A stretch of 52,752 nucleotides of DNA from Octopus sinensis (lineage: Eukaryota): positions 1 through 52,752 of the forward strand of contig NW_021833980.1 of NCBI RefSeq assembly GCF_006345805.1. Direction: 5' to 3'. The notes beneath the pieces were generated by a model. It searched no databases and was not told the DNA's origin. It worked only from the letters and a program-made list of their open reading frames with translations. How positions within the stretch are numbered: position 1 is the first letter of the stretch; each line of letters opens with the position of its first letter. Of this stretch, positions 950 to 45,709 are shown piece by piece. Position numbers and translations under genes: made by a program.

Positions 950-1103
950 TTTCATCAATGAATTTCATGTGGCTTTTCTTAACTCCTAAGTTAAGCAATT
1001 CCTGGGAATTGTTCAAAACTGGGAGATATTGCGCCGCAGTTGACTTTCAGTCATTTCGCTAAATACTGTACAGTAAATAGCAAATATTTTATTTCTGTTT
1101 GAG
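950..1103 (-). CDS. SEA-like domain exon 3 ([27 protein letters not shown][x][23 protein letters not shown]); 154 nt, 1 nt short
   Basis: Strong ttttttatttcag acceptor and GTAAGT donor; two open segments joined by a -1 shift at ATCTCCCAGTTTTG. Confidence 0.75.
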
Positions 1104-16182: not shown

Positions 16183-17525
16183 TAACACAGAAGAATGGAG
16201 ATATCATACACATTGAATCAGATTGGCAAATCACAAAATCTTGCGATACAGTAATACTGCGTATTAATCGGCCCTTTAGTTACAGGGTGTTCTCTTTTCA
16301 TGTTCTGAGTTCAAAATTTGGAGGACGATTTTGCCTTTCATCTTTTTGGGGTCGATGAATTAAGTACCAGCCGAGCACTAGGGTGGATGTAATCGACAAG
16401 CCCCCAGCCACAAAATTGCAGGCCTTGTGCTTATCGTAGAAAGAATATTTTAGCCCCTTGATTACCAAATTACCAAATGGCTTCGTGGTAGAAAAACAGA
16501 GGCAAATACAGCAATCATCAGAAATATTTGAATGGAATTTTTGTGGTTCTTATTCCTTCTGATAACTCCGTTGTCATAAGGATATAATAAGTAATAACAA
16601 TATATATATATGTGTGTGTGTGTGTATGCTTATATATGCACATACGCATACACACACAGGAAAATTTATATATGTGTGCATGAAGGTTTGTATGTAGGCC
16701 ACTCTCTCGACTCCAGTTAATTATGAGTATTTATAAACATGGGGTAAACTAGATCAAACCAACCTTCTGATATTTGAACATAATCTTTTCGATAATAAAA
16801 CACAGTGCTCGGAAATCATGTTGATCCACTGAAATTTAAATCAACTCATTGTTGTTTATTACCAACAACATTTAACGAGGAATTGAGAATTTTATGACCT
16901 CATTTTTATTTTTTTCATTTTCCTATAACCCAAAAAACTGTTTTGCTTACATTTTAACTATGCTGGGAAGAATAAGAAGCGCCATCTTCATATTTTTCTA
17001 TTGGGTTGCTGTTCAAATATCTGAAAAAGAGACAAATATTACACACTTTAAAATAAGTAAAATTAAATAAATCTGTTTACTCTTGTTCATTTCTAAATTG
17101 CTTTTTAGTCAACACTAACAGGGTAAATGCTGATATTACACACTACAATTGTTTATTCCTCTTTATATTTCTATGGGAAGTGTTGTTTGAACAAGAATAG
17201 GTTCCTTCAATCTAACTTAATTATCCTAACAGAAAACCTGATAACAAAACAGCAAAAGATGGAAGGGAATAAAATACAAAAATAAAAAAAAATAACAAGG
17301 AGACTTTCTTATGTGCACAATATGGGTTTTAGTCAACATTCTCATCTATGGTAGAAATATCTTCCTCCATACAGGCAAGGTTCTGTGGCAGGAAAATTAC
17401 ATCTCACATCCATGGATTCTTTAGTCCAACTGTGTGGCACCTTGGACAAATAACATTAACTATAACCTTGGGTCAACTAAGCGTTGTGAGTAAATTTGCT
17501 GCAGGAAACTGTGTGGATTCCCTTC

Positions 17526-17592
<67 letters not shown>

Positions 17593-19794
17593 ATATATTA
17601 TATATATATATGCGAGTGCTTGATAACCAATATTGGTTTGTTTACGTCCCCCGTAACTTAGTGATTCCTCAAAAGGTATCCGACTGATTAAGTGCCAGAT
17701 TTTAAAAATTCAGTACTAAGGATGATTTGTTCGAGTAAACGCTTGAAGGTAGTACTCCAGCATGGCCGCAATCTGATAACTGAAACAAGGAATAGTAAAA
17801 GTACATACTCCAGTAGCAGTGTAATGATAAAAAAGGTTTTCAAAACAATAAAATAATAATTATTGCAATAACATTGACCATCTTCAGACCAGTGCATAAC
17901 TATCAGAATCCTATTCAAAGTTCATAAAACAATGGTCACCTTTTGGTAGAAGATAAATACTGGGTACCTATAAATTGACTTTACAATTTGAACACTTCAG
18001 AAGACAATGAAGAACAAGGATAACTCATCAAACTTTATTGGAAATCTTTGGCAAACAAATATCAGAAGCATTAGAACACTTCGACGTGGATTTAATTGTT
18101 ACCAATTCTACGTCGCTAAAAGCCACACTTCTTTTTTGTCGGTTGAATTTTATAACGGGATTTTTACTAAAAGAGTCTTCCCCATGAAGACGTTCTTTTA
18201 AATTTGATTAATCTACACATTTCCTTTGGAAATAACTGAGATATTTTGATTCAAAGTCACTTTTTTGCCTTACGCTGCCATTTTTTACCTCGAAAACTTT
18301 GAAATAAATATTTTAAAGAATCAATTTCCAATTATTTTAGCTCGAAATGTAGCTTACATCTCGATCATCATTGCCAAAACGATGCAATTAATTAGGTTGA
18401 GAGCTGAATTACTAATTAAATCATGTAATAGGAGTGGAAGAGCTGCACTCTGTTGTTCACAGTCTCTAAGTGAAGTTCAGTAACAAGGACGGGGAGTCAA
18501 ATGTTGGGGTGCCAGGTGGGATAATCTATAGTCACCTTGATACTTTGGTGGATGGAGTTGGCTACTTGCTGGATGCTCTCCATTATGTTCCTCTCAGTTT
18601 CTACATTACCGTTACTAGAGCTGGTCTTAACTGTGATATTAATGCCATCTATATACCTACAGTAAATTAGAAGAGTTGTGGACTGTTTTGCCAAGGATTG
18701 CTTAGGTTTTCTGATCCACCAGGTCATGAAGAGGCCGGCAATATCTCCAGATACACCGACACAAATGGCCGCACCTTGAACTTACATGTATAGTTTCAAG
18801 CATTTGTCTTATGAAGGAAGGCCGAAGACGCACGACCTTTGTTCTCTCGAAAAACGACGACGCCGTGGTGATCTCATTCTTGGTCCCTACATCATAAGCG
18901 GAAAGTGTATCCTCTCGAAAGAGCTGTTCTTCACTCCTGCTCCAGAGCGTCGGCTGCAGGGTCACTCCGAAAAGCTCTATCTACGACGATTTCATCTCAA
19001 TCGAAGGAGAGGGGCTATCTCCGTCCGGGTTGCGGATCCGTGGAATAAGCTGCCGGACGAGATAGTGAAGATGCCGACGACCGCTCGGTTCAAAGTCTCT
19101 CTTGACCAGAAATAGCCTGAACTCTTTGTATGACCACCCTCCCTGTACATAACGCCCTGTCCCCCTACATGGCCTTGCTTTTGCTTTTTGAGACAAAAAA
19201 TTAAACTAAACTAAACTAGTGATACTTTAGTCTGTGGTTCTTCAAGGTGGTTCTTACGCTAGCTCCTACTGCCTGTGCAATCATTCCTTTCTCCTAATTG
19301 TTGTTCTCAGGGAGTTGGGTGGGTAGGGTCAAGCCACACCAGCGCTCAGTGGTGCATTTATTTACTGCTGAAGTGATGGTGGGTGGTCTAAGAATCTGTG
19401 ATCTGGCGGGGTAGAATATATAGTCTAAGAACGAGACACGGATCACGCGTGTTGACATCACAGAACTACACTTCACATTTCACAGACAATCTCATTACAT
19501 TATACTCCAGCAAAATCGATGTCAATAGATGGGTAGAGGGAAGCAAGTCCTTAGTGTCCACTACACAACATGTGAAGAACTTGGAGTGACCAAAAATACT
19601 CATTTTATTGAGGATGTCCTCAGTGCTAACAGAAGAAGAAGAAGAAGAAGAAGAAGAAGAAGAAAAAGAAGAAGAAGAAGAAGAAGAAGAAGAAAAAGAA
19701 GAAGAAGAAGAAGGAGAAGAAGAAGAAGAAGGAGAAGAAGAAGAAGAAGAAGAAAAAGAAGAAGGAGAATAAGGAGGAGAAGAAGAAGGAGAAG

Positions 19795-19826
<32 letters not shown>

Positions 19827-20561
19827 GAAGAAGAAGGAGAATAAGGAGAAGAAGAAGAAGAAGAAGAAGAAGAAGAAGAAGAAGAAGAAGGAGAAGAAGG
19901 AGAAGAAAAAGAAGAAGAAAGAAGAAGAAGAAGAAGAAGAAGAAGAAGAAGGAGAAGAAGAAGAAGAAGAAAAAGAAGAAGAAGAAGAAGAAGAAGAAGA
20001 AAAAGAAGAAGTAGAAAAAGAAGAAGGAGAAGAAGAAGAAGGAGAAGAAGAAGGAGAAGAAGAAGAATAACGGCAATGCGGATAAATAACTGCCAGTCGT
20101 TGTCATGTCCAAACACATTCAAATAGATATATCATGAATAGAGTCCAGTAGTTGATTCGTCGATATATTAAGGAAATGCGAAAAAATGTCATCGTTCAGA
20201 AGATATATGAAGCAGGAAGAAACGTTGCTTAGTTTGAATAATGTTCATTATGTGAAGAAAGAATTTATATGGAAATATAACGAATAAGGGAAGAAGAAGA
20301 ACAAGAAGAAGAAGAAGAAGAAGAATAGAAGAAGAAGAAGAAGAAGAAGAAGAAGGAGGAGGAGGAGGAGACGAAGAATAAGAAGAAGAAGAAGAAGAAG
20401 AAGGAGAAAAGAAGAAGAATGAGGAGAAGGAGAAAAAGGAGGAGGAGAAGGAGAAAAAGAAGAAGAAGAAGAAGAAAAACAAGAAGAAGAAGAGGGGGAT
20501 TTAGGAAGAAGAAGAAGAAGAAGGAGAAGAAGAAGGAGAGGGATAATAATAATAATAATAA

Positions 20562-20592
<31 letters not shown>

Positions 20593-23500
20593 AAGAAGAA
20601 GAAGAAGAAGAAGAAGAAGAAGAAGAAGAAGAAGAAGAAGAAGAAGAACAAAAACTTCAACAACAATAACAAAAACATTATCTCGGTGGAATTGTGGATA
20701 AATAACCACACGGCACCACAGAATCAACAGAACAATGTGAAATAAAATAGTAGCTAAAACTTATATTAATAGTGCAGATACAGACATACATATGAACATA
20801 CACATATATTTTCAGGAATAACATTTTTATGCAGACAATTATCAACTGACAGTCATTGACATGTTCAGACTCAATCAAATAAATATAACACGAATATGAG
20901 AACTGAATATGATTTACAGTAATAGAGAGTGAGAAAACATGGAAATAAGGGGATATTAAATTTAAAGACATAGTATATTCCTCATGTATAAACGACAACA
21001 TTGAAAGAACTTACAATTCCTCTAAGCTGTGAAGGCCTTGAAACATCTCCTTTTCAATCCTTGAAATTTTATTGTTGCCAAGGTTTCTGAAGCAGGAAAC
21101 AATATTGGTTAGATTGACATAGTGTGAATTGCGATAACATATTCAATATTGTTCTTTATGAAAAGGGAAAAAATATAGGAAAATAACACAAGAAGAAGAG
21201 GAACAGGAAAGAGATTGAGAAGAAGAAGAAGCCAAAGAAGAAGGGGAGGTGGGGAAGGGGAAACGGAGAAGACAAGGAGGAAGTGGAGGGGGAGAAGAAG
21301 TAGAAGAAGGAGGAGTTGGAGGAGGAGGAACGAAGGAGAGGAAAATGGCTGAGGACGGAGTAGGACAAGGAGATGAAGGAGGGGTGGGGGAAATAGGAGG
21401 AGGAGCAGAGGGTAGAGTAGAAGAAAAAGATGTAAATTATTAAAAAGAGGAGGAGGGTGAGGAGACGAAGAAGAATAGGCAAAAGAGAAGAAAAAGAAGA
21501 AGAAGAGGAAAAAGAAGAAGAAGAAGAAAGCGATGAAGAAGGAGGAGGAAGAGGAGAAGGAGGGAGAGAATTACAAAAAAGAAGATGAGAAAAAAAAGAA
21601 GAAGGAGGAGAAGGAGGAGAAGTAGAAGAAAGTAGAAGTAGGAGTGGAAGAAAAAGAGGAAGAAGAAAGAGGATAAGGAGGGGGAGGGGAAAGTAAGAAT
21701 TACAAGAAGGAGGAGGAGGAGGAGAAGAAGAAGAAGAAGAAGAAGAAGAAGAAGCAGAAGAAGAAAAAGGAGGAGGAGTAGAGGTAGAAGAAGAGGAAGA
21801 AGAACAGGAAGCTGTAGAAGAAAGAGAAGACGGAAGAAGAGGCAAGAGGTGGAGGAGGAGGATGAAGGGGAAGAAGAAGTTAGAGAAAAGAAAAAAAGAA
21901 GAAGAAGGAGGAGGAGAATAACAAAATGAAACTATGAAGAAGAAAGAGCCGAAAGAGGAGAAGTAGATGAAGAAATAGAAAGTAGAATAAGAAGAAGTAG
22001 AAGAAAAAGAAAAATAAGGAGGAAGATGAGGAGGAGAAGTACAAGAAGAAGAAGAAGAAGAAGAAGAAGAAGAAGAAGAAGGAGAAGAAGAAGAAGAAGG
22101 AGAAGAAGAAGGAGGAGGAGGAGGAGGAGGAGGAGGAGGAGAAGAAGTAGAAGTAGAAGTAGAAAGAAAGAAAAAGAAGAAGAAAAGAAGACGAAGAAGA
22201 AGAAGAAGGAAAAGGAGGAGGATGAAGGGGAAGAAGAAGAGAAAGGAGGAGGATGAGAAGAATATGAAGAAGTAGAAAGTGTAGAAGAGGTAGAAGACGA
22301 AGAAAAAAAGAAGTGGTAGAAAGAGAAGAAGAAAAGGAAAATGATGGAGGAAGACGGGGAACAGAAGTAGAAGAAGAAGACGAAGAAGGAGAAGAAGAAG
22401 GAGAATAAGAATAAGAATTAGAAGAAGAAGAAGAAAAAGGAGCAAGAGAGGAGAGGGGTGGAGATGGACGAGAATTACAAGAAGAAAAAGGAGGGGTGGG
22501 GTGGTGAGAGGAGGAAGTGAATTACAAGAAGTAAATGTAGATGAAGAAGAAGAGAATAAAATTAGAAGAAGAAAAGAAAGAGGAGGAGGTGGAGGAGGAG
22601 AAGAAGAAGAATAGTTTAAAAGAAGGAGAAGAAGAAGAAATTGAAGAAGAGAAGAAAAAGAAGGAGGAGGATGATGAGCAGGAGGTGAGGCGGAGGAAGG
22701 AGAAGACGAAGAAGAAGAAGAAGAAGAAGAAGAAGAAGAAGAATAGTTTAAAAGAAGAAGGAGAAGAAGAAGAAAATGAAGAAGAAGAGAAGAAAGTAAG
22801 GATAGGAGGAGGCATGAGGTTGGCTAAGGAATAAGAAGAAGGAAGACTAAGACTAAGAATATAAGAAGAAGACGACGACGACGAAGAATAAGAATAATAA
22901 GAAGAAGAGTATAAGGAAGAATAAAGAATAGAAAAGAAGAAAAGAAGAAAAAGACGAAGACGAAGAAGAAGAAAGGAAGAAGAAGAAGGGGAGTAGAAGA
23001 AAAGAAGAAGAAGAAGAAGAAAGAAGTTATATTGAAAATCATGGTGTTGAAGACGAAACTGAAATTGTTCTTAAAATATCAGGAAATAATTCAAGGATAG
23101 ATCGATAAATTTTGGGCGAGAAGACATGGCTGAAAAATCATGGAATATACGGAATCAGAAATCAACATATTCAAATGCACTCATACGCATTCTTATATTC
23201 ATAGTATCAACGACGGAATGCGGTATGCACACTCACATCACACATATTCCCACTCACCCTTGTGGAAATATGGTGAGAGAGATTATTTCATATCGCTTCA
23301 TTGTCAGAAGAATATTAGAAAACACACGCTTACAAGAAATATATCAGCAGTTTAATTGTATCAGGCCAAATATTCCAGCTTACATGTACAGTAAGTATTT
23401 CAGGTTTACAGATAGAATGTATGTGACTATATTATTCGAATATATATTTTTCGCTTCCAATTTAGTTGCTCTATTACATAAATAACGTGAAGTGAATGAC

Positions 23501-26500
23501 AAAATTCGAAGTTGAATGATAATATCGAAACATGAAGGAGAATATTGAAATAGGAAATGGAGGAGGATGTAAAATATAAAATAAAGGAATAATATATTCA
23601 CATTTCACACAGAACTACACTTATATATGAACATACACAAATACTTCAGCTAAAAATATTTGATGCAAACATGTAAACTCACAAACGTTACCATTTCTAA
23701 TACAAATTCATATCAAAATCATTGAAATTGGGGAACAAAATGAGTTATTTAGATGCGAATTGAAACGAAGCAAGTACAAGAAAGGAACATTATATTTTTC
23801 CTATTATTTCACATTTTCTCTCAAATTCTCTCTCTTTCTTTCACATTGTCTCGCTCTCTCATATTCTTCTTTGTATATTCCTAAATCGTGTTGATTCTAC
23901 AAATTCGAATTGATTTTGTTTGGTGGAGTCTGAAATTTTATACATTTGTGAGCTTATATATCAGCATCAATTATTACATTCGGAAAATAATATCAAGAAA
24001 CTGAAGAACTTACAATTCTGTTAAATTGCAAAGCCCCGTGAATACACCTTCTTTGATGGTTGCAATGTTGTTGGAACCAATATTTCTATAGCAGTAAAGA
24101 AAGAGTAAAATAGATTATATGGAAAATATTTGTGATACGACATCAAACACTGTGACTTCAGAATGAAAGGAAGAAAAAGAAGAAATATAACGAAGAAGAA
24201 AAAGAAGAAGAAGGAGAAGAAGAAGAAAAGAAGAAGAAGAAAAGAGAAGGTAGATGAAGAGAAGAAGAAGAATAAAAAGAAGAATAAGGAGGAGGAAGAG
24301 GAGAAGAAGAAGAAGAAGAAGAAGTAGAAGAAAACGTAGAAGAAGAAAGGAGAAGATAAAGGAGTAGAAGACCTAGAAGAAGAAAAAGAAGAAGAGGAGG
24401 CGGAGGAGGCGGAGGAGGCGGAGGAGGCGGAGGAGGCGGAGGAGGAGGAGAGGTGGGGATGTTAGGAGGAGGACAAAGGAATGGATGACTGAGGAGGGGC
24501 AGCTGGGGATAGCAGCAGAAGGAGCAGGAAGAGCAGGAGGATGAGAATAAGAGGAAGAATTGGCAGAGAATGGAAAAGAGGGAGACCATTGAAGAAGCAG
24601 AAAGTACAGAGAAGAAAAAGAAGAAGAAGAAAAGAAGGCAAAGAAGAAGACAAAGAAGAAGTAGAACAGGAAGAAAAGTAACAAGAAGAAGAAGAAGATG
24701 AAGTAGAAGAAGAATAAGAGGAAGAAGAAGAAGAAGAAGACGACGAAGAAGAAGAGGAACATGCAGGAGATGAAGAAGGAAAGAAGAAGACGAAGAAGAT
24801 GAAGAAGAAAAATAGAAGAAGAGAAAGAAGAAATTAAAGAAAAAGGAGGATGAGTAGGACGAAGAGGGGAGGTTGAGGAGAAGAATTGCAATAAGAAGAA
24901 GAAGAAGAAAAAGGAGAAGGAGGTGGAGGAGGAGGGGGAATAGGAGAATTACAAGAAGAAGAACAAAACAACAACAATAACAAAAAAATTATCTCGGTGG
25001 AAGTGTGGATAAATAACCACACGGCACCACAGAATCAACAGAACAATGTGAAATAAAATAGTAGCTAAAACTTATATTAATAGTGCAGATACATACATAC
25101 ATATGAACATACACATATATATTTTCAGGAATAACATTTTTATGCAGACAATTATCAACTGACAGTCATTGACATGTTCAGACTCAATCAAATAAATATA
25201 AGACGAATATGAGAACTGAATATGATTTACAGTAATAGAGAGTGAGAAAACATGGAAATAAGGGGATATTAAATTTAAAGACATAGTATATTCCTCATGT
25301 ATAAACGACAACATTGAATGAACTTACAATATCTCTAAGTTGTGAAGGCCTTGAAACATCTCTTTTTCAATCCTTGAAATTTTATTGAAGGAAAGAGATC
25401 TGAAGCAGGAAACAATATTGGTTAGATTGACATAGTGTGAGTTGCGATAACATATTCAATATTGTTCTTTATGAAGAGGGACAAAATTATAGGAAAATAA
25501 TACAAGAAGAAGGGGAACAGGAAAGAGATTGAGGAGAAGAAGAAGACAAAGACGAAGGGGAGGAGCGGAAGGGGAAACGGAGAAGACGAGGAGGAAAAGG
25601 AGGGGGGGAGAAGAAATAGAAGTAGGAGTTCGAGGAGGAGGTGGGGAGGAGAAGAAAAAGCTTGAGGTCGGAAGAGGACAAGGAGATGCAGGAGGGGTGG
25701 GGGAAATAGGAGGAGGAGCAGAGGGTAGAGTAGAAGAAAAAGATGTAAATTATTAAAAAGAGGAGGAGGAGGATGAGGAGACGAAGAAGAATAGGTAAAA
25801 GAAAAAGAAGAAGAAGAGGAAAAAGAAAAAGAAGTAGAAGAAGGCGATGAAGAAGGAAGAGGAAGAGGAGAAGGAGGGAGAGAATTACAAAAAAGAAGAT
25901 GAGGATAAAAAGAACGAGAAGGAGAAGGAGGAGAAGTAGAAGAAAGTAGAAGTGGGTTAGGAAGAAAAACAAGAAGAAGAAGGAGAAGTAGAAGAAGAAT
26001 AAATGAAGTAGAAGAAAGAGAAGTTGAAGAAAAAGAAAAATAAATAGGAAGATGAGGAGGAGAAGTAGAAGAAGAACAACAACAACAATAACAAAAAATT
26101 TATCCTGGTGGAAGTGTGGATAAATAACCACACGGCACCACAGAATCAAGAGAACAATGTGTAAGAAAATAGTAGCTAAAACTTGTATTAATAGTGCAGA
26201 TACATACATACATATGAACATACACATATATATTTTCAGGAATAACATTTTGATGCAGACAATTATCAACTGACAGTCATTGACATGTTCAGACTCAATC
26301 AAATAAATATAAGACGAATATGAGAACTGAATATGATTTACAGTAATAGAGAGTGAGAAAACATGGAAATAAGGGGATATTAAATTTAAAGACATAGTAT
26401 ATTCCTCATGTATAAACGACAACATTGAAAGAACAATTTCTCTAAGTTGTGAAGGCCTTGAAACATCTCTTTTTCAATCCTTGAAATCTTATTGTTGCGA

Positions 26501-29500: not shown

Positions 29501-31280
29501 TGGGGGTAGAAGCAGAAGGAGCAGGAAGAGCATGAGAATGAGAATAAGAGGAAGAATTGGCAGAGAATGGAAAAGAGGGAGACAAGTGACGGAGCAGAAA
29601 GTACAGAGAAGAAAAAGAAGAAGAAAAAAAGAAGAAGAAGAAGAAGAAGAAGAAGAAGAAGAAAAATAGAAGAAGAATACAAATAAGTAGAAAAATAAGA
29701 AGAAAAAAGAAGGCAAAGAAGAAGACAAAAAAGAAGTAGAACACGAAGAAAAGTAACAAGAAGAAGAAGTAGATGAAGTAGAAGAAGAAGAAGACGACGA
29801 AGAAGAAGAGGAACATGTAGGAGATGAAGAGGGAAAGAAGAAGACGAAGAAGATGAAAAAAAAGAAAAATAGAAGAAGAGAAAGAAGAAATTGAAGAAAG
29901 AGTAGGATGAGTAGGACGAAGAGGGGAGGTTGAGGAGGAGAATTGCAATAAGAAGAAGAAAAAGGAGGAGAAGGAGGTGGAGCAGGAGGGAGAATAGGAG
30001 AATTACAAGAAGAAGAACAAAACAACAACAACAACAATAAAAAAAATTTATTTCGGTGGAAGTGTGGATAAATAACCACACGGCACCACAGAATCAAGAG
30101 AACAATGTGTAAGAAAATAGTAGCTAAAACTTATATTAATAGTGCAGATACATACATACATATGAACATACACATATATATTTGCAGGAATTACATTTTT
30201 ATGCAGACAATTATCAACTGACAGTCATTGACATGTTCAGACTCAATCAAATAAATATAAGACGAATATGAGAACTGAATATGATTTACAGTAATAGAGA
30301 GTGAGAAAACATGGAAATAAGGGGATATTAAATTTAAAGACATAGTATATTCCTCATGTATAAACGACAACATTGAATGAACTTACAATTTCTCTAAGTT
30401 GTGAAGGCCTTGAAACATCTCCTTTTCAATCCTTGAAATTTTATTGCTGTCAAGAGATCTGAAGCAGGAAACAATATTGCTTAGATTGACATAGTGTGAA
30501 TTGCGATAACATATTCAATATTGTTCTTTATGAAAAGGGACAAAATTATAGGAAAATAATACAAGAGGAACAGGAAAGAGATTGAGGAGAAGAAGAAGAC
30601 GAAGAAGGGGATGAGGGGAAGCGGAAAAGAAGAAGACTAGGAGGAAAAGGAGGGGGAGTAGAAGTAGAAGAAGGAAGAGTTGGAGGAGGAGGAGGGGAGA
30701 AGAAGAAGAAGGAGGAGGACTGAAGAGGACAAGGAGATGAAGGAGAGAAAGGAACATAGGAGGAGGATGGGCAGAGGAAAAGAAGACAAAGAAGAAGAGG
30801 AGGAGGGGAAGGGGAAAATAAGAAGACAAGGAGGAAGAGGAGTTGGGAGAAGAAGTAGAAGGAGGAGGAGGAGAAGGATGAGTAGGAGGAGTAGGCGGAG
30901 ATGAGGAGAAGTAGGTTGAGGACGGGGGAGGACAATGAGATGCAGGAGGGGGAATAGGAGGAGGAGGAGGAATGGGAGGAGTAGAAGAAGAAGATGTAGA
31001 AGATTAAAAAGAGGAGGAAGAAAAAGAAGATATAGAAGAATGAAGGGGATGGAGAGGAGAAGAATAATAAGAAGAAGAAGCAGGAAAAAGAAGAGGAAGA
31101 AGAAGTAGAAGAAGAAGAAGAAGAAGAAGAAAAAGAAGAAGGAGAAGGAAATGGAGGAAAAGAGATGGATGACGAGGAAGGGGAAGGAGAAGAAGGAGAA
31201 GAAGAAGAAGAACAACAACAACAACAAGAATAAGAAGAAGAAGTAGGAGGAAGAGGAGGAGAATAACAAAATGAAGAAGA

Positions 31281-31311
<31 letters not shown>

Positions 31312-37300: not shown

Positions 37301-37580
37301 AGAAGGAGGAGAAGAAGGTGCAGCAGGAGGAGAGGAACAGAAGGAAGAAGAAGAAAAAGAAGAAGAAGAAGAAGAAGAAGAAGAAGAAAAAAGGAGAAGC
37401 GAGAGAAGAAGAAGCAGGAGGAGGAGGAAGAGAAGGAAGAAGAAGAAAAAGAAGAAGAAGAAGAAGGAAAATAAGAAGAAGAAGAAGGAAAAGAAGAAGA
37501 AGAAGGCAGAATACGAAATGACAAAAAGATGAAGAAGAAGGCGGAGAAGGAGAATAGAATAAGAAAAAGAACAAAAAGAA

Positions 37581-37612
<32 letters not shown>

Positions 37613-40600
37613 AAAATATAAAGCGGGAGAAGAAGAAGAAGAAGAAGAACAACAACAACAACAAAAAGAAGAAAAAGAGGAAGAAGAAGAAGAAGAAGTG
37701 GAAAAAGAAAAAGATAAAGAGGGAGAAGAAGAAGAACAACAACAAAAAGAAGAAGAAGAAGAAGAAGAAGAAGAAGAAAAGATAAAGAGGGAGAAGAAGA
37801 AGAAGAAGAAAAAGAAGAAGAAGAAGAAGAAGAAGAAGAAGAAGAAGAAGATGACAATTTAAAAATGATGGTGTTCATGATGAAACTGAAAATGTTCTCA
37901 TAATATCAGGAAATAATTCAAGGATAGAGCGATAAATTTTGGGCGAGAAGACATGGCTGAAAAATCAGGGAATATACGGAATCAGAAATCAACATATTCA
38001 AATGCACTCATACGCAATCTTATATTCATAGTATCAACGACGGAATGCGGTATGCACACTTACATCACACATATTCCCACTCACCTTTGTGGAAACATGG
38101 TGAGAGAGATTATTTATTTCATATCGCTTCATTGTCACAAGAATATTAGAAAACACACGCTTACAAGAAATATATCAGCAGTTTAATTTATCAGGCCAAA
38201 TATTCCAGCTTACAAGTACAGTAAGTATTTCAGGTTTACAGATAGAATGTATGTGACTATATTATTCGAATATATATTTTCCGCTTCCACTTCAGTTACA
38301 TAAATAACGTGAAGTGAATGACAAAATTCGAAGTTGAATGATAATATCGAAACACGAAGGAGAATATTGAAATAAGAAATGGAGGAGGATGTAAAATATA
38401 AAATAAAGGAATAATATAGTCACATTTCACACAGAACTACACTTATATATGAACATACACATATACTTCAGGTAAAAATATTTGATGCAAACATGTAAAC
38501 TCACAAACGTTACCATTTCTAATACAAATTCATATCAAAATCATTGAAATTTGGGAACAAAAATGAGTTATTGAGATGCGAATTGAAACAAAGCAACTAC
38601 AATAAAGGAACATTATATTTTTCCTATTATTTCACTTTCTCTCTTAAATTCTCTCTCTTTTTTCACATTGTCTCGCTCTCTCCTATTCTCTTTGTATCTT
38701 CCTAAATCGTATTCATTTTACAAATTTGAATTGATTTTGTTCGGTGTAGTCTGAAATATTATACATTTGTGAGCTTATATATCAGCATCAATTATTACGT
38801 TCGGAAAATAATATCAAGAAACTGAACGAACTTACAATTCTTTTAAATGTGAAAGCCCCGTGAATGCTCCTTCTTTGATGGTTGCAATGTTGTTGTTCCA
38901 CAGTTCTCTATAGCAGTAAAGAAAGAGTAAATTAGATTATATGGAAAATATATGTGATACGACATCAAACACAGTGACATCTGAATGAAAGGAAGAAAAA
39001 GAAGAAAGATAACGAAGAAGAAGAAGAAGAAGAAGAAGAAGGGGAAGAAGAAGAAGAAGAAGGAGAAGAACAAGAAGAAGAAGAAGAAGAAGAAGAAGAG
39101 GAAGTAAAAGAAGACGAAGACAAAGAAAAGGAAGAAGAAGAAGAAGAAGAGGAAATAGAAGAAGACGACAAAGAAGACGGAACATGAAGGAGATGAAGAA
39201 GGAAAGAAGAAGAGGAAGTATAAAAAGAAGAAAAAGAAGAAGAGAAAGAAGAAATTGAAGAAAAAGGAGGATGAGTAGGACGAAGAGGGGAGGTTGAGGA
39301 GGAGAATTGCAATAAGAAGAAGAAAATTAGGAGAAGGAGGTGGACGAGGAGGGGGAATAGGAGAATTACAAGAAGAAGAACAAAAACAACAACAACAACA
39401 ACAAAAATATTATCTCGGTGGAAGTGTGGATAAATAACCACACGGAACCTCAGAATCAACAGAACAATGTGTAAGAAAATAGTAGCTAAAACTTATATTA
39501 ATAGTGCAGATACAGACATACATATGAACATACACATATATATTTTCAGGAATAACATTTTTATGCAGACAATTATCAACTGACAGTCATTGACATTTCA
39601 GACTCAATCAAATAAATATAAGACGAATATGAGAACTGAATATGATTTACAGTAATAGAGAGTGAGAAAACATGGAAATAAGGGGATATTAAATTTAAAG
39701 ACATAGTATATTCCTCATGTATAAACGACAACATTGAAAGAACTTACAATTTCTCTAAGCTGTGAAGGCCTTGAAACATCTCTTTTTCAATCCTTGAAAT
39801 TTTATTGTAGCCAAGATCTCTGAAGCAGGAAACAATATTGGTTAGATTAACATAGTGTGAATTGCGATAACATATTCAATATTGTTCTTTATGGAAGGAG
39901 ACAAAATTATAGGAAAATATACAGAAGAAGAGGAACGAAAGAGATTAAGGAGAAGAAGAAGAAGAAGAAGAAGAAGAAGAAGAAGAAGAAGAAAGAGAGG
40001 AGGGGAGGGAAAAGAAGAAGTCAAGGAGGAAGAGAAGGGGGGAGAAGAAGTAGAAGAAGGAGGAGTTGGAGGAGGAGGGGAGGTGAAGAAGGATGAGGAC
40101 AGGGAAGGAAAGGAGATGCAGGAGGGGGAGGAAGGGAGGAAAATAGGAGGAGGTGCAGAGGATAGAGTATAAGAAGATATAGAAGATTAAAAAGTGGAGG
40201 AAGAATAAGATGAAGTAGAAGGGAGAAGAAAGGGGAGGAGGAGAAGAAGAGAAGAGGAAGAAGAGAGGAGAAGAAGAAGAAGGAGAGAAGAGAAAGAAGA
40301 AGTAAAAGGAGAAGAAGAGCGGAAGAAAATGAAGAAGAAGAAGAAGCATGAAAAAAGAAGAGAGAAAAAGAAAAAGAAGGAGAAGAAGGAAGAAGAGGAA
40401 AATAGGTGGAGGCGGAGGAGTAGGAGGAAGCGGAAGGAGAAGAAGAGGACAAAGGAGAAGGAGGAGGAAGAGAAGTAGGAGAAGAAGAAGAAGAAGAAGA
40501 AGAAGAAGAAGAAGAAGAAGAAGAAGAAGAAGAAGAAAAGAAGAAGAAAAGAAGATGACACTTTGAATATCATGGTGTTGAAGACGAAACTGAAATTGTT

Positions 40601-43600
40601 CTTAAAATATCAGGAAATAATTCAAGGATAGATCGATAAATTTTGGGCGAGAAGACATGGCTGAAAAATCAGGGAATATACGGAATCAGAAATCAACATA
40701 TTCAAATGCACTCATACGCATTCTGATATTCATAGTATCAACGACGGAATGCGGTATGAACACTCACATCACACATATTCCCAATCACACTTGTGGAAAT
40801 ATGGTGAGAGAGATTATTTATTTCATATCGCTTCATTGTCACAAAAATATTAGAAAACACACGCTTACAAGAAATATATCAGCAGTTTAATTGTATCAGG
40901 CCAAATATTCCAGCTTACATGTACAGTAAGTATTTCAGGTTTACAGATAGAATGTATGTGACTATATTATTCGAATATATATTTCCCGCTTCCAATTCAG
41001 TTGCTCTATTACATAAATAACATGAAGTGAATGATAAAATTCGAAGTTGAATGATAATATCGAAACACGAAGGAGAATATTGAAATAAGAAATGGAGGAG
41101 GATGCAAAATATAAATAAAGGAATAATATAGTCACATTTCACACAGAACTACACTTATATATGAACATACACATATACTTCAGGTAAAAATATTTGATGC
41201 AAACATGTAAACTCACAAACGTTACCATTTCTAATACAAATTCATATCAAAATCATTGAAATTTGGGTAACAAAACTGAGTTATTGAGATGCGAATTGAA
41301 ACAAAGCAACTACAATAAAGGAACATTATATTTTTCCTATTATTTCACTTTCTCCCCCAAATTCTCTCTCTTTCTTTCACATTGTCTCGCTCTCTCCTAT
41401 TCTCTTTGTATCTTCCTAAATCTTGTTCATTCTACAAATTTGAATTGATTTTGTTTGGTTCAGTCTGAAATTTTATACATTTGTGGGCTTATATATCAGC
41501 ATCAATTAATACTTTTGGATAATAGTATCAAGAAATTAAACGAACTTACACTTTTTTTTAAATTGGAAAGCCCCGTGAATACACCTTCTTTGATGGTTGA
41601 AATGTTGTTCTCGGAAAGATATCTATAGCAGTAAAGAAAGAGTAAAATAGATTATATGGAAAATATTTGTGATACGACATCAAACACTGTGACTTAAGAA
41701 TGAAGGAAGAAAGAAAAAGAGAAAGAAGATAACGAAGAAGAAGAAGAAGAAGAAGAGACATGGAAAATGAGGTGTTCAAGATGAAAACCGAAAAAGGATT
41801 GAAGAGAGAAGAAGAAGTAGAAGAAGAAGAAGGAGAAGAAGAAGAAGAAGAAGAAGGAGAAGAAGAAGAGAAGAAGAAGAAGAGAAGAGAAAAGAAACAG
41901 AAGAAGAAAAAAAATAAAAAGGCGTAAAGATGAAGATTACAAGAAAAGAAGAAAAAAGAAGAATACGAAGAAGAAAAAGAAGAAGAAGAAGAGAGACGAA
42001 GAATAATAATAAGAAGAATAAGAAGACCAAGAGGAGAAGAAGAAGAAGAAGAAGAAGAATAGAAGAAGAAGAAAAGAGGAGGAGGAGAGAAGAAGAAGAA
42101 GAAGAAGAAGGAAGAAGAAGAAGAAGAAGAAGACGGAGAAGAAGAGAGAGAAGAAGAAGAGAAGACGAAGAAGAAGAAGAAGAACAAGAGGAAGAAGGCA
42201 GAAGATGCAGGAGGAGAAGAATATCTTAATGTGGCAGCAGTTTCATGTTTATTTCTTACTTGACTTGCACAACCTCGAGTATCCGCTTCGCCTCTCTATG
42301 TACCAACACACACATCCACACACATACACGCACATATACGCACATACACACATATATGCTCAGAAATATACACACATATGTATATCTACCTCTGGGTGCG
42401 AGTATGTGTGCGAACCTCGTCCCGGTAGTGGTGTTCTTTTTACCTGTCGATATAGTTTATTATCGAATCTAAAGGTGTTGTCTTCTAGTTCCCGGCGTGT
42501 GTCTTTGGAAATGTGTTTTGAAGCGTTCGTCCATCCGTCCGCTATGTTTTTCTACCCAGTGTTTGATTGCTTCCAGGCCCAAAGTGTGATGTATTTGTAC
42601 AAAGATTAGTCAAATCTTTTAAGTATAGTACGTTCTGGGACAGTGGGTGGAATGTGTTTGATGAAATCCATATCGTCTCGGGTATAGCTGGGCATTAATG
42701 GGCACAACGGTTTGAGGAGTATATCCAAAAGATGGCTCAGTTGTTGTGTTGGGGCTCAGGGTCCAGCAACTGTTGGTCTCAATTTGATGTCAGTAGGTCT
42801 TAGTATTTTTATATGCTGATCCTTGCATTTTGGAGCATTCGCAGATCTTGGGTGATCCATAGAAATTACTCTCTTTCATTACAGAGCTGCATAAATAATC
42901 TTTCTCATTATCTGTGAACGAACGTTGGTATTCATTTATCTGACTTTTGGGTGTATTCATTATTACTTTTTCCGGGTGTCTTGGTTCTTCCTTGTAGCAG
43001 GATTGGTCTGTTTCCAATATTTTATCTTTATAGTAGTCTTGGTCCGTGACTGCTTTCACCCTTCCCTAATCGGTTTCTTTTAGGATGATTGAATTGTCAT
43101 TCTTCAGTTTGTAAGGCTTTCTTTTCTTCTTCAGGAAGGTTCTGTTCGCTTTACGGATATTTTATTATATATGATATAAAACGGATTTAAGTCACCACGT
43201 AAAGTATGAATGAAAAACACATATGCATGTAAAATATGAGAAAAGAATGGATGTTCAAAATATTTGTGATTTGAATTAGATTTACAAAGCCTTCGTTGCA
43301 ACATCAGTTTTCAGTGGAAGATATTTTTATCATCTCAGAAGTCAGCTTTATTTATAAATATCTTGTTTCTGTCCAATGAGCATTCCATTTGTTATTACAC
43401 TTTGCTGTCAAAAGTAATTTACCTTTGCAAAAGTAAACTCCTTTCCTTTGCTTAGTTGATGCATAAAAGTTCTTCATAAAAATAAATAAACCCCCAAAAC
43501 TTCAAGACTGAAATAATAGACTAGGAAGGAAAGCATAACAGAAATGGAAAGGGATTTATTAATAGAATTGGTGATGGTAGAGTGGGGAAACCCTTATTTA

Positions 43601-45709
43601 ATTTTGAGTCATGTGCTACAAGGGAGAACAACCTTACATGGTGATTTAACTGGCTAAGGGTGTTATTTAAAAAAGGGATGAGACAACATACATTGCCTTA
43701 GTTTTTTAGTCTTTGTTTAGCCCTTTGCTCCTTACTCTTGCTGTATTAAACCTCAGTTTGTTCCCATTATTAACCACCTATACTAAATCCTTCATCCCCT
43801 AAATAGCATCCCTGTTCATCATTCCTGTAAAGGTTGACCTGCAACAGCTCAAACGGAATATTAATGATATCTGTCTCACAAGTATTGGAGATCTTGCAGG
43901 AGTTAAAAAACTTGTATGATCCTTTCTCCAAAATCGGTAAAATAAAAAGTGTGGGATTTTAACTCAGATCACAAACAACTGGACAATATACTGCAAGGTG
44001 TCATATTCGACGTCCTCATAGTTGCATTTGTTCATTGAACTGTTATGGTTCTTTATTGATCTCGGAAATGAATGACCCAAGGTTGACCTTGGCGGGACTT
44101 GAAGTCAGATTGCCGAGTGTCAGAACGTGATGTATTCTGCTAGACGGTCAAATGATTTGTGCCAAACCTCGCTCAAGTTATGAACGATGAAAATATCTAA
44201 CTTATTAAACAGAACTTCAACTTTACTATTCAACATCTTGAGTTATACGAGATTTAGGAATTCTATTATTGAAACTTTTCTCTTTATTTTACATTAGGAT
44301 TTCTCATTTTGTCAAAACGTTCCAAATGTTTTGAGAAATAGATCTGATCGAATGAATTGATCCACTTTAGTATTAGGATATTTGATTAAAACTGAAAGTT
44401 TAAGGTGATTAATGCAATGATGCAAGCCAATTAACTGGAAGTAATCACCTGGAAGAGCAATGTGTTGCAACAGAGTATTTGTTATGATTTATGTATCAAA
44501 TAATTACTCTTTTTTATTCTATTCCATTTCTTGAGACGTTAAATTTTAATAATTTACTTAAAAATTGCGTAAGATTTCAGGTGAACGGGGATACATCAAT
44601 CAGCCGAAACTTCAAATAACCTTCCATAATTTTGTAATAAGGTTTATTGTGTTCATGATAGGGTAAATTTTTCTGATGACATTCTATCAAAAATAAATTC
44701 CTCATAATTTGTTAAAATAACACTATTTTGATTTCTTCACTTAGGTATTTTAAGAATTTGGTAATTTAAGCGGATCTCGTCATTATCTGCTGTTTAATCC
44801 ATCTGTTTCATTTTTAATTATAAAAATAATAATTTCTTCCATAGGAACAAACCTGAAATTTTGGGAAAGGGACAAGTCCTTTACATTGATCTCAGAGATT
44901 AATTGCTATTTATTTTACTGACTCCAAAAGAATGAAAAACAAAGTCAACCTCGACAGAATTTAAAATCGAAACGTAAAGACGAACGAAATACCGCTCAAC
45001 ATTTTGTCTGGCGTGCACAACGATTCTGATAGCTCGCTGCATATTCTATTATAAAATTAACACAAACAATAATTAACAATTATTCTGTGACACGATCAAC
45101 TGATATTATATCATATTACTGTAATAATAAGCAACAATTCAACTAATTAATGATATAATATAACTATGTGGAATACACGTTTTCTTAGCACTAAAGTTTT
45201 TATACTGTCCGTTCATTGAATATACCGTAAGATTTGATAAGTTCAGACAAATGACATCAAAGTCAGATACTAGTCAGATCCAATCACTGTGTATGAGATG
45301 TTATATATTATAAATTCAATATGGTAAGAAACAGTTTATTTGACTTCACAACAGGTAACATATCGATTTGTTTTACTCTAACATAAGATTGTGCTTAAGG
45401 CTGTGAGATAAACAGCATAAGCGATTAGCTGAGAACATAATCAATGAGAATTTAAAATATTGGATGTGGAAAATACGTAGAAAGTGTCAAATACTTACAA
45501 ATATTCAACATTCGTCGGAATTGGTTGTGGAATTGATAGTAAATTGCGACGTGCACAATTTATTCTCGTTGTAAGTGAATTGCAAGTACATATCTTGCAT
45601 ATATCTGAATCAGCTTGAGTCTCCAAAAACAATATCGTACACAGTATCAACACAAGAGACCGTCTATATGATACTACGTGGTGAAACATATTGCCAGGCG
45701 TAGATTTAT
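950..45709 (-). CDS. Multi-exon gene for a secreted or cell-surface LRR receptor: signal peptide, LRRNT, 13 LRRs, LRRCT, LU/three-finger domain, SEA-like domain. 3' end not traced; five exons carry small indels
   Basis: 20 exons bounded by AG/GT. Intron phases chain consistently (2, 2 after each of 13 LRR exons, then 1, 0, 1, 0, 2, 1) once five 1-2 nt indels are corrected. The domains translate in a sensible order. Confidence 0.85.
1125..1305. repeat. (TATG)n/(TAGC)n/(TA)n microsatellite
   Basis: Seen directly. Confidence 0.95.
1300..1799. mobile_element. Penelope-type inverted pseudo-LTR remnant: ~118 bp perfect inverted repeat (1300-1417 / 1682-1799) around an AT-rich spacer with (TAATCTATATA)n
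   Basis: Arms are exact reverse complements by eye; the left arm continues into a hammerhead motif; flanked by (TA)n. Confidence 0.7.
1395..1437 (-). ncRNA. Minimal type I hammerhead ribozyme motif
   Basis: CCAC-CUGAAGA-u-UGUC ggagca GACA-u-GAAA-CA uu UG-UA-GUGG: intact core, stem I CCAC/GUGG, stem II UGUC/GACA, very short stem III. Confidence 0.65.
2847..3392. repeat. (TA)n/(TG)n microsatellite cluster, interrupted by a ~150 bp repeat-derived insert at 3031-3185
   Basis: Seen directly. Confidence 0.9.
3536..4516 (+). mobile_element. 5'-truncated RTE-clade LINE (RT C-terminus to 3' end), frameshifted
   Basis: [73 protein letters not shown], a terminal C2H2-like finger and a 3' stem-loop. 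Confidence 0.9.
4590..4642 (-). CDS. SEA-like domain exon 2 ([18 protein letters not shown])
   Basis: tttgcag/GTAAGC; 53 nt, phase 0 to phase 2, matching the next exon. Confidence 0.75.
4808..5114. mobile_element. MITE-like element with ~90 bp degenerate inverted arms (4808-4897 / 5025-5114)
   Basis: aaacgcaggataatgctaat...tctgtcggcggccag mirrored by ctggccgccgacaga...attagcatcatcctgcgttt. Confidence 0.55.
5633..5714 (-). CDS. SEA-like domain exon 1 ([11 protein letters not shown][F][16 protein letters not shown]); 82 nt, 1 nt short in a T/A run
   Basis: ccatag/GTGAGT; 83 nt are needed to join the phase-0 exon at 4642. Confidence 0.7.
6203..6500 (-). mobile_element. R4/Dong-type non-LTR retrotransposon fragment
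   Basis: [16 protein letters not shown]...[30 protein letters not shown] on the minus strand. Confidence 0.75.
6703..6885 (-). CDS. LU/three-finger domain, C-terminal half ([56 protein letters not shown]); probable -1 indel near the 3' end
   Basis: Ends in the diagnostic CC-x4-CN; acag/GTAAGT. The next exon is open only in phase 1, implying ...CNxNDFIG. Confidence 0.85.
7810..8115 (-). mobile_element. Possible highly decayed hAT (ZBED1/Ac-like) transposase fragment
   Basis: [14 protein letters not shown] resembles the FIxxDLRPFxxVE hAT motif; single motif only. Confidence 0.3.
8500..8640 (+). mobile_element. SINE fragment (Deu/Nin-type core)
   Basis: B-box-like gttcg followed by gttgcgtccttgaacaaggcactt. 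Confidence 0.45.
8846..8937 (-). CDS. LU/three-finger domain, N-terminal half ([31 protein letters not shown])
   Basis: LxCxxC-x4-C-x7-C start typical of Ly6/uPAR domains; gtag/GTAAAC; 92 nt, phase 1 to phase 0. Confidence 0.85.
9433..9536. repeat. (TATG)n microsatellite
   Basis: Seen directly. Confidence 0.95.
9537..9675 (+). mobile_element. RTE-like LINE 3' end
   Basis: [23 protein letters not shown]2H2 finger, then a short 3' UTR ending in (TAA)n, inside (TATG)n. Confidence 0.6.
9730..10850 (-). mobile_element. R4/Dong-type non-LTR retrotransposon RT fragment, degenerate
   Basis: [57 protein letters not shown]. Confidence 0.85.
10915..11140. repeat. (TATG)n microsatellite
   Basis: Seen directly. 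Confidence 0.95.
12319..12524 (+). mobile_element. tRNA-derived SINE with probable target-site duplication (tagatggctt)
   Basis: ggcggcaagctggcagaaacgtt A box, gttcaaattcc B box, cctttcgggg...ggggtcgat body; related copies elsewhere in the window. Confidence 0.8.
13615..13772 (-). CDS. LRRCT exon ([52 protein letters not shown])
   Basis: N..CxC.L..F...C...C motif; tacag/GTAAGT; 158 nt, phase 2 to phase 1. Confidence 0.9.
14377..14702. mobile_element. Non-autonomous element with 77 bp inverted arms (14377-14453 / 14626-14702) enclosing hairpins and a hammerhead motif
   Basis: gtataatagccatctcaatatggctaacc...gatcatcgtc versus its reverse complement, with a few mismatches. Confidence 0.7.
14498..14542 (+). 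ncRNA. Minimal type I hammerhead ribozyme motif, U3-A8 core variant
   Basis: CGUGCG-UUGACAA-GAGG caaaua CCUC-GAAA-CUGCGG-UC-CGUGCG; GUC cleavage triplet; stem I has two G-U pairs. Confidence 0.6.
14830..15032 (+). mobile_element. R4/Dong-type REL-endonuclease C-terminal fragment
   Basis: [15 protein letters not shown]...SVLLG...RILRRVLEV*. Confidence 0.7.
15090..15255. repeat. (GAT)n microsatellite
   Basis: Seen directly. Confidence 0.95.
15265..15405 (+). mobile_element. R4/Dong-type fragment
   Basis: [25 protein letters not shown] matches WL...LK.ETE..I.AAQDQAL. Confidence 0.6.
16220..16450 (+). mobile_element. tRNA-derived SINE (same family as 12319)
   Basis: gttctgagttcaaa...gcctttcatc...ggggtcgat...aagtaccag...gatgtaatcgac...gccttgtgc...aaagaatatt. 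Confidence 0.75.
16951..17020 (-). CDS. Last, unique LRR exon ([14 protein letters not shown][F]LILPSIVKI); 70 nt, 2 nt short
   Basis: ctttttcag acceptor and GTAAGC donor; both ends read as LRR in the phase 2-2 frame, with a -2 shift after GGC GCT. Confidence 0.8.
17527..17611. repeat. (TA)n microsatellite
   Basis: Seen directly. Confidence 0.95.
17620..17800 (+). mobile_element. SINE 3' fragment (second family)
   Basis: gtttacgtccccgtaacttag...tttgttcgagtaaa...aaggtagtactccagcatggccgca...actgaaacaag. Confidence 0.55.
18465..18725 (-). mobile_element. Penelope-like RT fragment
   Basis: RYIDGINI (YxDD-like) ... [24 protein letters not shown]. Confidence 0.55.
18777..19218 (+). mobile_element. 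CR1-clade LINE 3' end
   Basis: [12 protein letters not shown]...LQGHSEKL...[16 protein letters not shown]...FKVSLD, followed by an (ACTAA)n tail. Confidence 0.85.
20116..20280 (-). pseudogene. Degenerate LRR pseudo-exon (YLLNDDI..., acceptor CAG changed to CAT at 20207)
   Basis: Flank tgaagcaggaa...ttgcttagtttga...ttatatggaaatat is homologous to the intact cassette acceptor flanks; no donor at 72 nt. Confidence 0.5.
21015..21086 (-). CDS. LRR cassette exon, type A ([24 protein letters not shown])
   Basis: 72 nt, cag/GTAAGT, phase 2-2. Confidence 0.9.
24014..24085 (-). CDS. LRR cassette exon, type B ([24 protein letters not shown])
   Basis: 72 nt, tag/GTAAGT, phase 2-2. Confidence 0.9.
25328..25399 (-). 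CDS. LRR cassette exon, type A ([24 protein letters not shown])
   Basis: 72 nt, cag/GTAAGT, phase 2-2. Confidence 0.9.
26435..26506 (-). CDS. LRR cassette exon, type A ([24 protein letters not shown]) with weakened donor GTTCTT
   Basis: 72 nt, open, cag acceptor; a 4-nt deletion converts GTAAGTTCTT to GTTCTT. Confidence 0.7.
29151..29222 (-). CDS. LRR cassette exon, type B ([24 protein letters not shown])
   Basis: 72 nt, tag/GTAAGT, phase 2-2. Confidence 0.9.
30387..30458 (-). CDS. LRR cassette exon, type A ([24 protein letters not shown])
   Basis: 72 nt, cag/GTAAGT, phase 2-2. Confidence 0.9.
32455..32526 (-). CDS. LRR cassette exon, type B ([24 protein letters not shown])
   Basis: 72 nt, tag/GTAAGT, phase 2-2. 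Confidence 0.9.
33806..33877 (-). CDS. LRR cassette exon, type A ([24 protein letters not shown])
   Basis: 72 nt, cag/GTAAGT, phase 2-2. Confidence 0.9.
35525..35596 (-). CDS. LRR cassette exon, type B ([24 protein letters not shown])
   Basis: 72 nt, tag/GTAAGT, phase 2-2. Confidence 0.9.
35691..36578. repeat. ~443 bp direct tandem duplication inside a purine tract
   Basis: aagaaagataacgaagaagaaaagg... recurs at 35691 and 36134 with the same internal non-purine landmarks (ggaatacctgg, caagtcgaaatag). Confidence 0.85.
38836..38907 (-). CDS. LRR cassette exon, type B ([24 protein letters not shown])
   Basis: 72 nt, tag/GTAAGT, phase 2-2, LRR consensus. Confidence 0.9.
39748..39819 (-). CDS. 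LRR cassette exon, type A ([24 protein letters not shown])
   Basis: 72 nt, cag/GTAAGT, phase 2-2, LRR consensus. Confidence 0.9.
41550..41622 (-). CDS. LRR cassette exon, type B ([23 protein letters not shown]); 73 nt, one extra base in an A8 run
   Basis: tag acceptor and GTAAGT donor; aligns with the other B exons but is 1 nt longer. Confidence 0.8.
42395..43140 (-). mobile_element. Penelope-like element RT fragment, degenerate
   Basis: [60 protein letters not shown]. Confidence 0.8.
44050..44175 (-). mobile_element. Degenerate SINE fragment
   Basis: aaggttgaccttggcgggacttgaagtcaga is the reverse complement of the SINE B-box region. Confidence 0.45.
44830..45040 (-). mobile_element. tRNA-derived SINE (same family as 12319), reverse orientation
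   Basis: aaagtcaacctcgacagaatttaaa...gacgaacgaaataccgct...aacgattctgatagctcgctgc. Confidence 0.7.
45499..45709 (-). CDS. First coding exon: signal peptide + LRRNT (ATG at 45689; [64 protein letters not shown])
   Basis: Hydrophobic N-terminus and CxxCxC...C...L..IP..IP LRRNT motif. Acceptor ttttacag at 45710-45711 implies a further upstream exon. Donor GTAAGT at 45498-45493, phase 2. Confidence 0.9.

Follow-up and report, generated by a model that had tools for sequence, protein, structure and literature searches.

A fast-evolving array of one-LRR exons in an octopus gene, probably diversified mainly in the germline

An octopus gene in which each leucine-rich repeat (LRR) occupies an exon of its own, with the same phase at both ends, raises the question of how such an array might diversify the surface that it encodes. 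A first-pass annotation had proposed that the array offers a Dscam-like or VLR-like route to a receptor repertoire, either by splicing of different exon subsets or by shuffling of cassettes at the DNA level. The analysis below concerns a stretch of 52,752 nt of Octopus sinensis DNA (contig NW_021833980.1 of assembly GCF_006345805.1, hereafter the window) and its relatives in the genome G000 and in public annotations. The reading that we favour, with moderate confidence, is that the 13 phase-2 LRR exons of this gene, which vary chiefly at binding-face codons, encode part of a likely secreted recognition protein that arose from an adhesion-GPCR ectodomain; its diversity would come mainly from exon duplication, exon loss and positive selection in the germline, and skipping of exons probably contributes some isoforms.

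Most of one octopus gene lies on the minus strand of the window, running from an LRRNT exon through 13 one-LRR exons to an LRRCT exon (Table 1). Exons L1 to L12 belong to the 72-nt class and fall into two types (from L1 to L12: A B A A B A B A B B A B), with the terminal L13 after them. AG acceptors and GT donors accompany the LRR exons L1-L13, the donor of L9 being short by 4 nt as assembled. On the 3' side of LRRCT come a pair of Cys-rich exons and a ferredoxin-like domain spread over three exons, after which the contig ends. The Cys-rich exons are presumed to be Ly6/uPAR-like from a motif and from the NCBI name given to a relative, and we take the ferredoxin-like domain to be SEA-like; neither domain had a Pfam match, and both terms serve as labels only. 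The Cys-rich part of the structure model was of low confidence, and matches to the LRR part crowded the results of the fold search. Several other elements were seen along the window. A decayed type-B-like acceptor and exon remnant is found between L12 and L13 (20150-20330, minus strand), and the C25 and C29 copies hold an extra B-like match at the same place. The intron after L13 carries, near LRRCT, a 77-nt inverted repeat with 95% complementarity (14377-14702), which is probably a small transposon. Coding-looking stretches on either strand occur upstream of LRRNT (47500-48000) and in the first intron (42560-43140); they are Thr/Pro/Gln-rich or, by eye, GIY-YIG- or retroelement-like.

Table 1. 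Features of the octopus gene and its array introns in the window.
Feature	Position	Strand	Remark
Signal-peptide-like stretch and LRRNT exon	45499..45709	-	ATG at 45689; ends in phase 2 (last 2 nt)
LRR exon L1, type A	41550..41622	-	73 nt as assembled, one extra A in run; 72 nt and open in C8846, C4525
LRR exon L2, type B, 72 nt	39748..39819	-	
LRR exon L3, type A, 72 nt	38836..38907	-	
LRR exon L4, type A, 72 nt	35525..35596	-	Sister unit of L1
LRR exon L5, type B, 72 nt	33806..33877	-	Sister unit of L2; 9 substitutions vs both twin contigs
LRR exon L6, type A, 72 nt	32455..32526	-	
LRR exon L7, type B, 72 nt	30387..30458	-	
LRR exon L8, type A, 72 nt	29151..29222	-	
LRR exon L9, type B, 72 nt	26435..26506	-	Donor lacks 4 nt here; intact donor in C12785
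LRR exon L10, type B, 72 nt	25328..25399	-	
LRR exon L11, type A, 72 nt	24014..24085	-	
LRR exon L12, type B, 72 nt	21015..21086	-	
Terminal LRR exon L13 (type E)	16951..17020	-	70 nt here; paralogues and one public-run contig have 72 nt
LRRCT exon	13615..13772	-	Phase 2 in (first 1 nt), phase 1 out
Cys-rich domain exon 1 (Ly6/uPAR-like label)	8846..8937	-	No Pfam match
Cys-rich domain exon 2, CC...CN motif	6703..6885	-	1 nt short vs paralogues
Ferredoxin-like (SEA-like label) domain, first exon	5633..5714	-	1 nt short
SEA-like domain, second exon	4590..4642	-	
SEA-like domain, third exon	950..1103	-	1 nt short; full length in C9761; gene runs off contig end
Degenerate (GAA)n/(TTC)n tracts	19631..42221	.	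Confined to LRR-array introns; 37% of array vs 0-0.2% outside
17-bp inverted repeat, L1 copy	40956..41137	-	About 410-590 nt into the intron after a type-A exon; at all 6 type-A; probably passenger

All LRR boundaries are phase 2, and the codon that they split encodes LRR position 4. Joining the exons in every forward combination (105 joins) always yields L, V, F or I at the junction and never a stop. In an AlphaFold model of RefSeq model X1 (computed from a single sequence, with a mean pLDDT of 52 and values of 55-90 over the LRRs), eight of the nine strands start one residue before the junction residue, so that positions 2-3 of a strand derive from one exon and positions 5, 7, 8 and 10 from the next. 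These observations agree with the earlier proposals that the intron cuts the binding strand and that skipping would create new composite beta-strands; by computation, the number of distinct six-residue strand faces rises from 14 without skipping to 79 if forward skipping is allowed. The variable positions are distributed as had been described: in type B, 7 of 14 are in the first 13 nt of the exon and 2 of 14 in the last 5 nt; in type A, the corresponding counts are 10 of 23 and 3 of 23. The further claim that any subset of exons stays in frame is right as regards the phase-2 boundaries throughout, but only 11 of the 13 exons are 72 nt long as assembled, and subsets with L1 or L13 are out of frame because these exons measure 73 and 70 nt.

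The variability itself is concentrated on the predicted binding face. Among 77 intact exons (of 100 matches, from 12 loci; 40 type-A and 25 type-B exons being unique), amino-acid entropy peaks at LRR positions 5, 7, 8 and 3, and the LRR residues N9, F19, L22 and L1 are invariant. Between the type-B units of the window (6 units, 15 pairs), introns differ at 0.011 of sites, codons 5/7/8 at 0.496 of bases and the framework at 0.041; the corresponding values for the type-A units (5 units, 10 pairs; L1 excluded) are 0.068, 0.622 and 0.107, and the divergence of the binding face is thus about 9- to 45-fold above that of the neighbouring introns. The heads of exons are more divergent than introns in nearly all pairs of the young clade (575 of 595 and 169 of 171). 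A local mutation hotspot is disfavoured, since codon 6 remains constant between variable codons: it reads CTT in all 19 young type-B exons, silent base included, and codons 5 and 7 each occur in 7 forms. The divergence pattern at codons 5, 7 and 8 points to diversifying selection, although the variable codons have elevated synonymous divergence as well (0.17-0.39), which counts against this reading. Across 23 loci, 108 unique intact exons present 78 distinct 5/7/8 triplets, as counted with an approximate filter that missed some exons.

Whether this diversity is multiplied by splicing depends on how the annotated isoforms are interpreted. RefSeq holds 13 exon-skipping models for the window contig, each with 5-8 LRR exons in series; 7 isoform models were seen for the C25 paralogue, and O. 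vulgaris models differ by 1-3 LRRs, so that skipping models are present in two independent annotations. The O. vulgaris annotation pipeline used Iso-Seq and PASA, according to the accessible part of its description (PMC10700109). Taken at face value, such models would fit combinatorial exon skipping as the main generator of the repertoire, each cell or tissue using a large number of the possible exon subsets (up to 8192 for 13 exons), which would be Dscam-like in effect and not in mechanism. The in-frame forward joins, with their hydrophobic junction residues and the gain in strand faces, would suit such a process, as would the long CU-rich tracts in the array introns and splice sites so nearly identical among units that none is privileged.

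The models themselves, however, argue against so large a role for skipping. Five of the 13 RefSeq models are chimeras that leave L1 in mid-exon and resume at the corresponding position in L3 or L6; none of the 13 contains a complete L1 or L13, the frameshifted exons, whereas L8-L10 are present in all of them, and variation is restricted to L1-L7. When 11 skip junctions (10 from the window, 1 from C9761) were compared with the 216 ordinary adjacent junctions in the fetched loci, 10 differed from an adjacent junction in at least one copy by only 2-8 of 72 nt. This distance is about the spread between exon heads, and these 10 junctions may therefore be products of mis-mapping. For the L2-to-L6 junction, the L5-L6 junction of the twin contigs themselves is a match to within 2 nt, and among type-B exons the tails are separated by only 1-3 of 36 nt. 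All four models from loci whose exons are intact or more divergent (P0019, P0053, P0054 and P0082) contain every consecutive exon and bear no isoform suffix. Together with inverted repeats that display neither extra conservation nor two-sided compensatory change (see below), these features make it rather doubtful that skipping is the principal source of diversity.

The same features could be taken to the opposite extreme, in which splicing is effectively constitutive, the isoforms are artefacts (from assembly frameshifts, allelic differences between arrays and mis-mapped short reads) and diversity arises entirely in the germline. The chimeras, the avoidance of L1 and L13, the four full-exon models and the near-matching junctions are all accounted for in this way. 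What this explanation does not readily absorb is the LRR-to-LRRCT join past the terminal exon, which has no adjacent-exon source and recurs in O. vulgaris models, whose similar locus in G000 has a non-GT donor on that exon. In the window it takes the form of an L10-to-LRRCT join, which lies 18 of 72 nt from any of the 216 adjacent junctions and bypasses L13, and which may be the model's way round the L13 frameshift. Skipping of LRR exons is, moreover, documented in ROCO genes and in NLRP3 in the accessible text of two reports (PMC11378527, PMC6642158). We therefore regard wholly constitutive splicing as unlikely, while giving it some weight.

Broken exons, such as the first exon of C8700 and the terminal exon of C11856 with its faulty donor, are bypassed in frame by models of that or a similar locus, which fits true fault tolerance and annotation behaviour alike. 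The NT-to-B junction was considered as proof of skipping and lost force, since C8700, where the first LRR exon is broken, provides a match within 6 nt. In three protein searches the octopus matches were annotation models, and the few Logan matches were 40-47% identical. Of the proposed splicing repertoire, then, the symmetric modules, the composite strands, the hypervariability and the existence of annotated skips stand, but most of the skip junctions are indistinguishable from mis-mapping. On the sequence evidence, mix-and-match splicing is a plausible possibility.

Diversification in the germline is supported by the paralogue arrays. Complete paralogue arrays range from about 5 to 20 LRR exons in different A/B orders, and they hold exact and near-exact internal duplicates as well as broken exons. 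Within the window, L2 and L5 are sister units (support 99/96) and L1 and L4 are weakly so (98/36), and these two pairs fit the duplication of an A-B pair. The germline arm of the DNA-level shuffling proposed earlier is thereby supported, both by the differing exon number and order of the paralogue arrays and by the presence of sister units within a single array. One fetched paralogue array (C29:584k-609k; L059-L061, G000) consists entirely of type-A units, several consecutive ones being near-identical, and looks like a very recent tandem amplification. Exchange between loci was also considered on the basis of unit trees, in which the type-B units of the window reject monophyly (p-AU 1e-5) and for the type-A units monophyly is not rejected (p 0.11); it was set aside, as the aligned flank includes context-dependent sequence.

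Two kinds of intron repeat were evaluated in this context. GAA/TTC tracts cause breaks in yeast (PMC3681665, from the accessible text), and by analogy with that breakage they may promote unequal crossing-over in the array. The 17-bp inverted repeat is present in all six type-A introns, and, of 44 exact matches, those listed are all on contigs with this family. In principle it could pair across units and act as a docking-selector system. Its arms have a pi of 0.045 and 0.057 versus 0.068 in the surroundings, two-sided compensatory change occurs in 0 of 35 copies, and the A-B intron duplex falls within the shuffled range, so that this role is unsupported, the repeat being without extra conservation or two-sided compensatory change.

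The frameshifts in the window copy bear on whether it is a functional member of the family. Two twin contigs in G000, C12785 and C9761, are collinear with the window at about 99% identity and agree with it in the content and order of all 13 exons. In contigs C8846 and C4525, L1 is open and 72 nt long; a 72-nt L13 is found on C25 and in one contig of public run X1, which supplies the two letters missing from L13, although the run is guessed to be RNA and the contig may come from a paralogue. The contigs of four public runs were compared around L13 only, where the exon was covered and a dispersed repeat lies nearby. By these comparisons, the window frameshifts (L1, L13) and the damaged L9 donor are probably long-read assembly errors, because the indels lie in short base runs and several are absent from a twin, from C8846/C4525 or from C25. 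A decaying allele or pseudogene, which would be compatible with the favoured explanation of the family, is an unlikely but not negligible alternative for this copy. In its favour, five exons have indels of 1-2 nt and one has a damaged donor, and some indels are common to the twin contigs: the 70-nt L13 is common to all three twin contigs, the indel of the second Cys-rich exon is likewise in all three, and one further frameshift is in the two checked. Family-wide, 25 of 140 LRR exons are broken as assembled (an approximate count over 23 loci). The coding indels, on the other hand, including those of the three exons downstream of LRRCT that are each 1 nt short, lie in short base runs; indel columns exceed substitution columns among the twins (502 vs 199); and several breaks are not seen in one twin or in the C25 copy, which is about 98% identical. 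A separate difference concerns L5 and its upstream flank (33806-34020), which carry 9 exonic and 5 flanking substitutions relative to both twins, the other 12 exons having 0-1. As evidence for gene conversion or somatic change it is inseparable from consensus or polishing error, and it may be a conversion tract, an allele or a polishing artefact.

The family to which this gene belongs can be outlined from its conserved caps. LRRNT matches at 92% or more at no fewer than 31 places in G000 (31 of 40 matches, many of them on redundant contigs). The LRRCT exon matches 24 octopus proteins, several with GPS and 7tm_2 domains, and is 90% identical to P0018 and P0014, the former with a GPS (E 1e-10) and a 7tm_2 (E 7e-34) match. 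By sequence, the gene is a member of an octopus family related to LRR adhesion GPCRs, which, going by its published description, probably corresponds to the octopus-specific adhesion GPCR expansion termed group 3. In the accessible text of Ritschard et al. (2019; PMC6408891), LRRs are reported in 5 of 22 group-3 sequences, together with tandem clusters and branch-level positive selection; the string "splic" has 0 occurrences in it, and exon arrays or site-level variability are not described there. As in group 3, relatives of the window gene carry LRR, GPS and 7tm_2 domains, whereas the window copy, judged from its twin contig, ends without GPS or 7TM. Past the window, C9761 continues with two HRM-like exons, a second SEA-like block and a short terminal exon with a stop codon. 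No match to GPS or 7TM was obtained in the rest of C9761 or in the C25 region, whose copy has the same exon series and likewise closes with a short terminal exon. Above 75% identity, only one place in G000 matches the large last exon of the 7TM part, and two full-length relatives of the same type have no transmembrane-strength segment.

From the end of the twin contig without GPS or 7TM and from these relatives, the product is likely to be a secreted recognition protein and probably not a membrane receptor, which departs from the receptor that had been envisaged; splicing to a distant 7TM would be conceivable. Six family peptide motifs gave 0 matches in one mucus-proteome supplement (PMC10138644). 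Ritschard et al. report, in the accessible text, high expression of group-3 adhesion GPCRs in axial nerve cord, suckers, skin and gills, and a neural or adhesive role is accordingly possible. Individual members vary in composition and arrangement. Some paralogues (P0054, P0019 and P0012) carry 2-4 tandem copies of the Cys-rich domain with its two exons, so that exon modules are duplicated at a second level; in O. vulgaris, the model P0059, named MIB2-like, joins family LRR sequence to ankyrin repeats, by fusion or by an annotation join. Two family members lie in inverted, facing orientation at G000:C25:23282254-23381421 (L026-L035), and one of the two starts just after an assembly gap, without LRRNT and array, its 3' part being about 98% identical to the window.

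Among known systems, the octopus gene appears to work most like the ROCO arrays of brown algae, which offer a close precedent by analogy. Those arrays have 72-nt phase-2 LRR exons, positive selection on the concave face and splice variants, as reported in the accessible text of Zambounis et al. (2012; PMC3341825) and Teng et al. (2024; PMC11378527); somatic recombination was proposed but not demonstrated there. Shared features are one LRR per 72-nt phase-2 exon, an exon number that varies among paralogues, broken exons and concave-face selection. The ROCO proteins differ in their ROC-COR GTPase module, for which no Pfam match was obtained in 10 family proteins scanned, whereas the octopus gene is an animal gene with a signal-peptide-like start, LRRNT/LRRCT caps and modules of an adhesion-GPCR-type ectodomain. 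Frame-preserving LRR exons with a boundary inside the beta-sheet are also described for NLRs including human NLRP3 (Hoss et al. 2019; PMC6642158), and splice isoforms of different LRR length for crab VLR2 (Xu et al. 2023; PMC10045472), both in the accessible text. NLRP3, Slit and crab VLR2 have LRR-length isoforms with different binding or activity, but they are, in the same accessible sources, single genes with few isoforms, unlike the young octopus multigene family with its near-identical units and hypervariable heads. With arthropod Dscam1 the gene shares tandem exon duplicates able to diversify a recognition surface by splicing. The comparison breaks down at mutual exclusion, since the octopus models chain 5-8 LRR exons in series instead of choosing one per cluster, as a solenoid needs several. 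No conserved docking-selector pairing was found among the intron repeats examined.

With VLRs the gene shares a capped LRRNT-LRR-LRRCT solenoid and a variable concave face; the structure model aligns with hagfish VLR A29 over 114 residues (Z 14.5, rmsd 2.0), tied with other LRR proteins. It differs in being complete in the germline, with modules that are spliced exons, and in bearing no sign of somatic assembly. The VLR analogy consequently does not carry over: there is no incomplete germline gene with flanking cassettes, and no LRR cassettes were found over 22 kb of upstream sequence (C12785) or over 37 kb on the downstream side of LRRCT (C9761). An AID/APOBEC-type deaminase profile (PF08210) matched 0 of 8 candidates in G000, in a search that is weak in an intron-rich genome. 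Somatic rearrangement is unlikely, and a VLR-like process that assembles or edits the array in haemocytes is extremely improbable. What speaks for the latter is resemblance only, namely the VLR A29-like solenoid, the concave-face variability and the L5 twin difference; exon order is identical in all three twin contigs, and the twin differences are shared inconsistently, as consensus errors would be. A bolder scheme would be a recombinase-free, antibody-like repertoire of secreted LRR proteins, in which about 20 genes with hypervariable one-LRR exon arrays are spliced stochastically and cells secrete different solenoids with new composite strands; we hold this to be rather improbable.

Under the favoured reading of mainly germline diversification, each exon with its flanking introns would form a unit of 0.9-4 kb, and unequal crossing-over between near-identical units would copy or remove such units, a process to which the GAA/TTC tracts perhaps contribute. 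Symmetric phase would keep the frame through every gain, loss or skip, and a changing set of ligands, probably microbial or non-self, would select for the rewriting of positions 5, 7, 8 and 3, with some exon skipping on top of the germline diversity. No description of cephalopod exon arrays of this kind was found in the literature searched, which included few subscription journals. This is a real, fast-evolving modular LRR gene, and the octopus family to which it belongs looks undescribed.

No cephalopod counterpart is known of such diversified recognition families as the FREPs of snails, Dscam of insects or the VLRs of lampreys. A 2026 review (PMC13428168) names no such cephalopod family in its accessible text. 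Database isoform lists for arrays of this kind cannot count as proof of alternative splicing. The young family of likely secreted LRR proteins, seemingly derived from an adhesion GPCR ectodomain, is a concrete candidate for a diversified recognition family in cephalopods.
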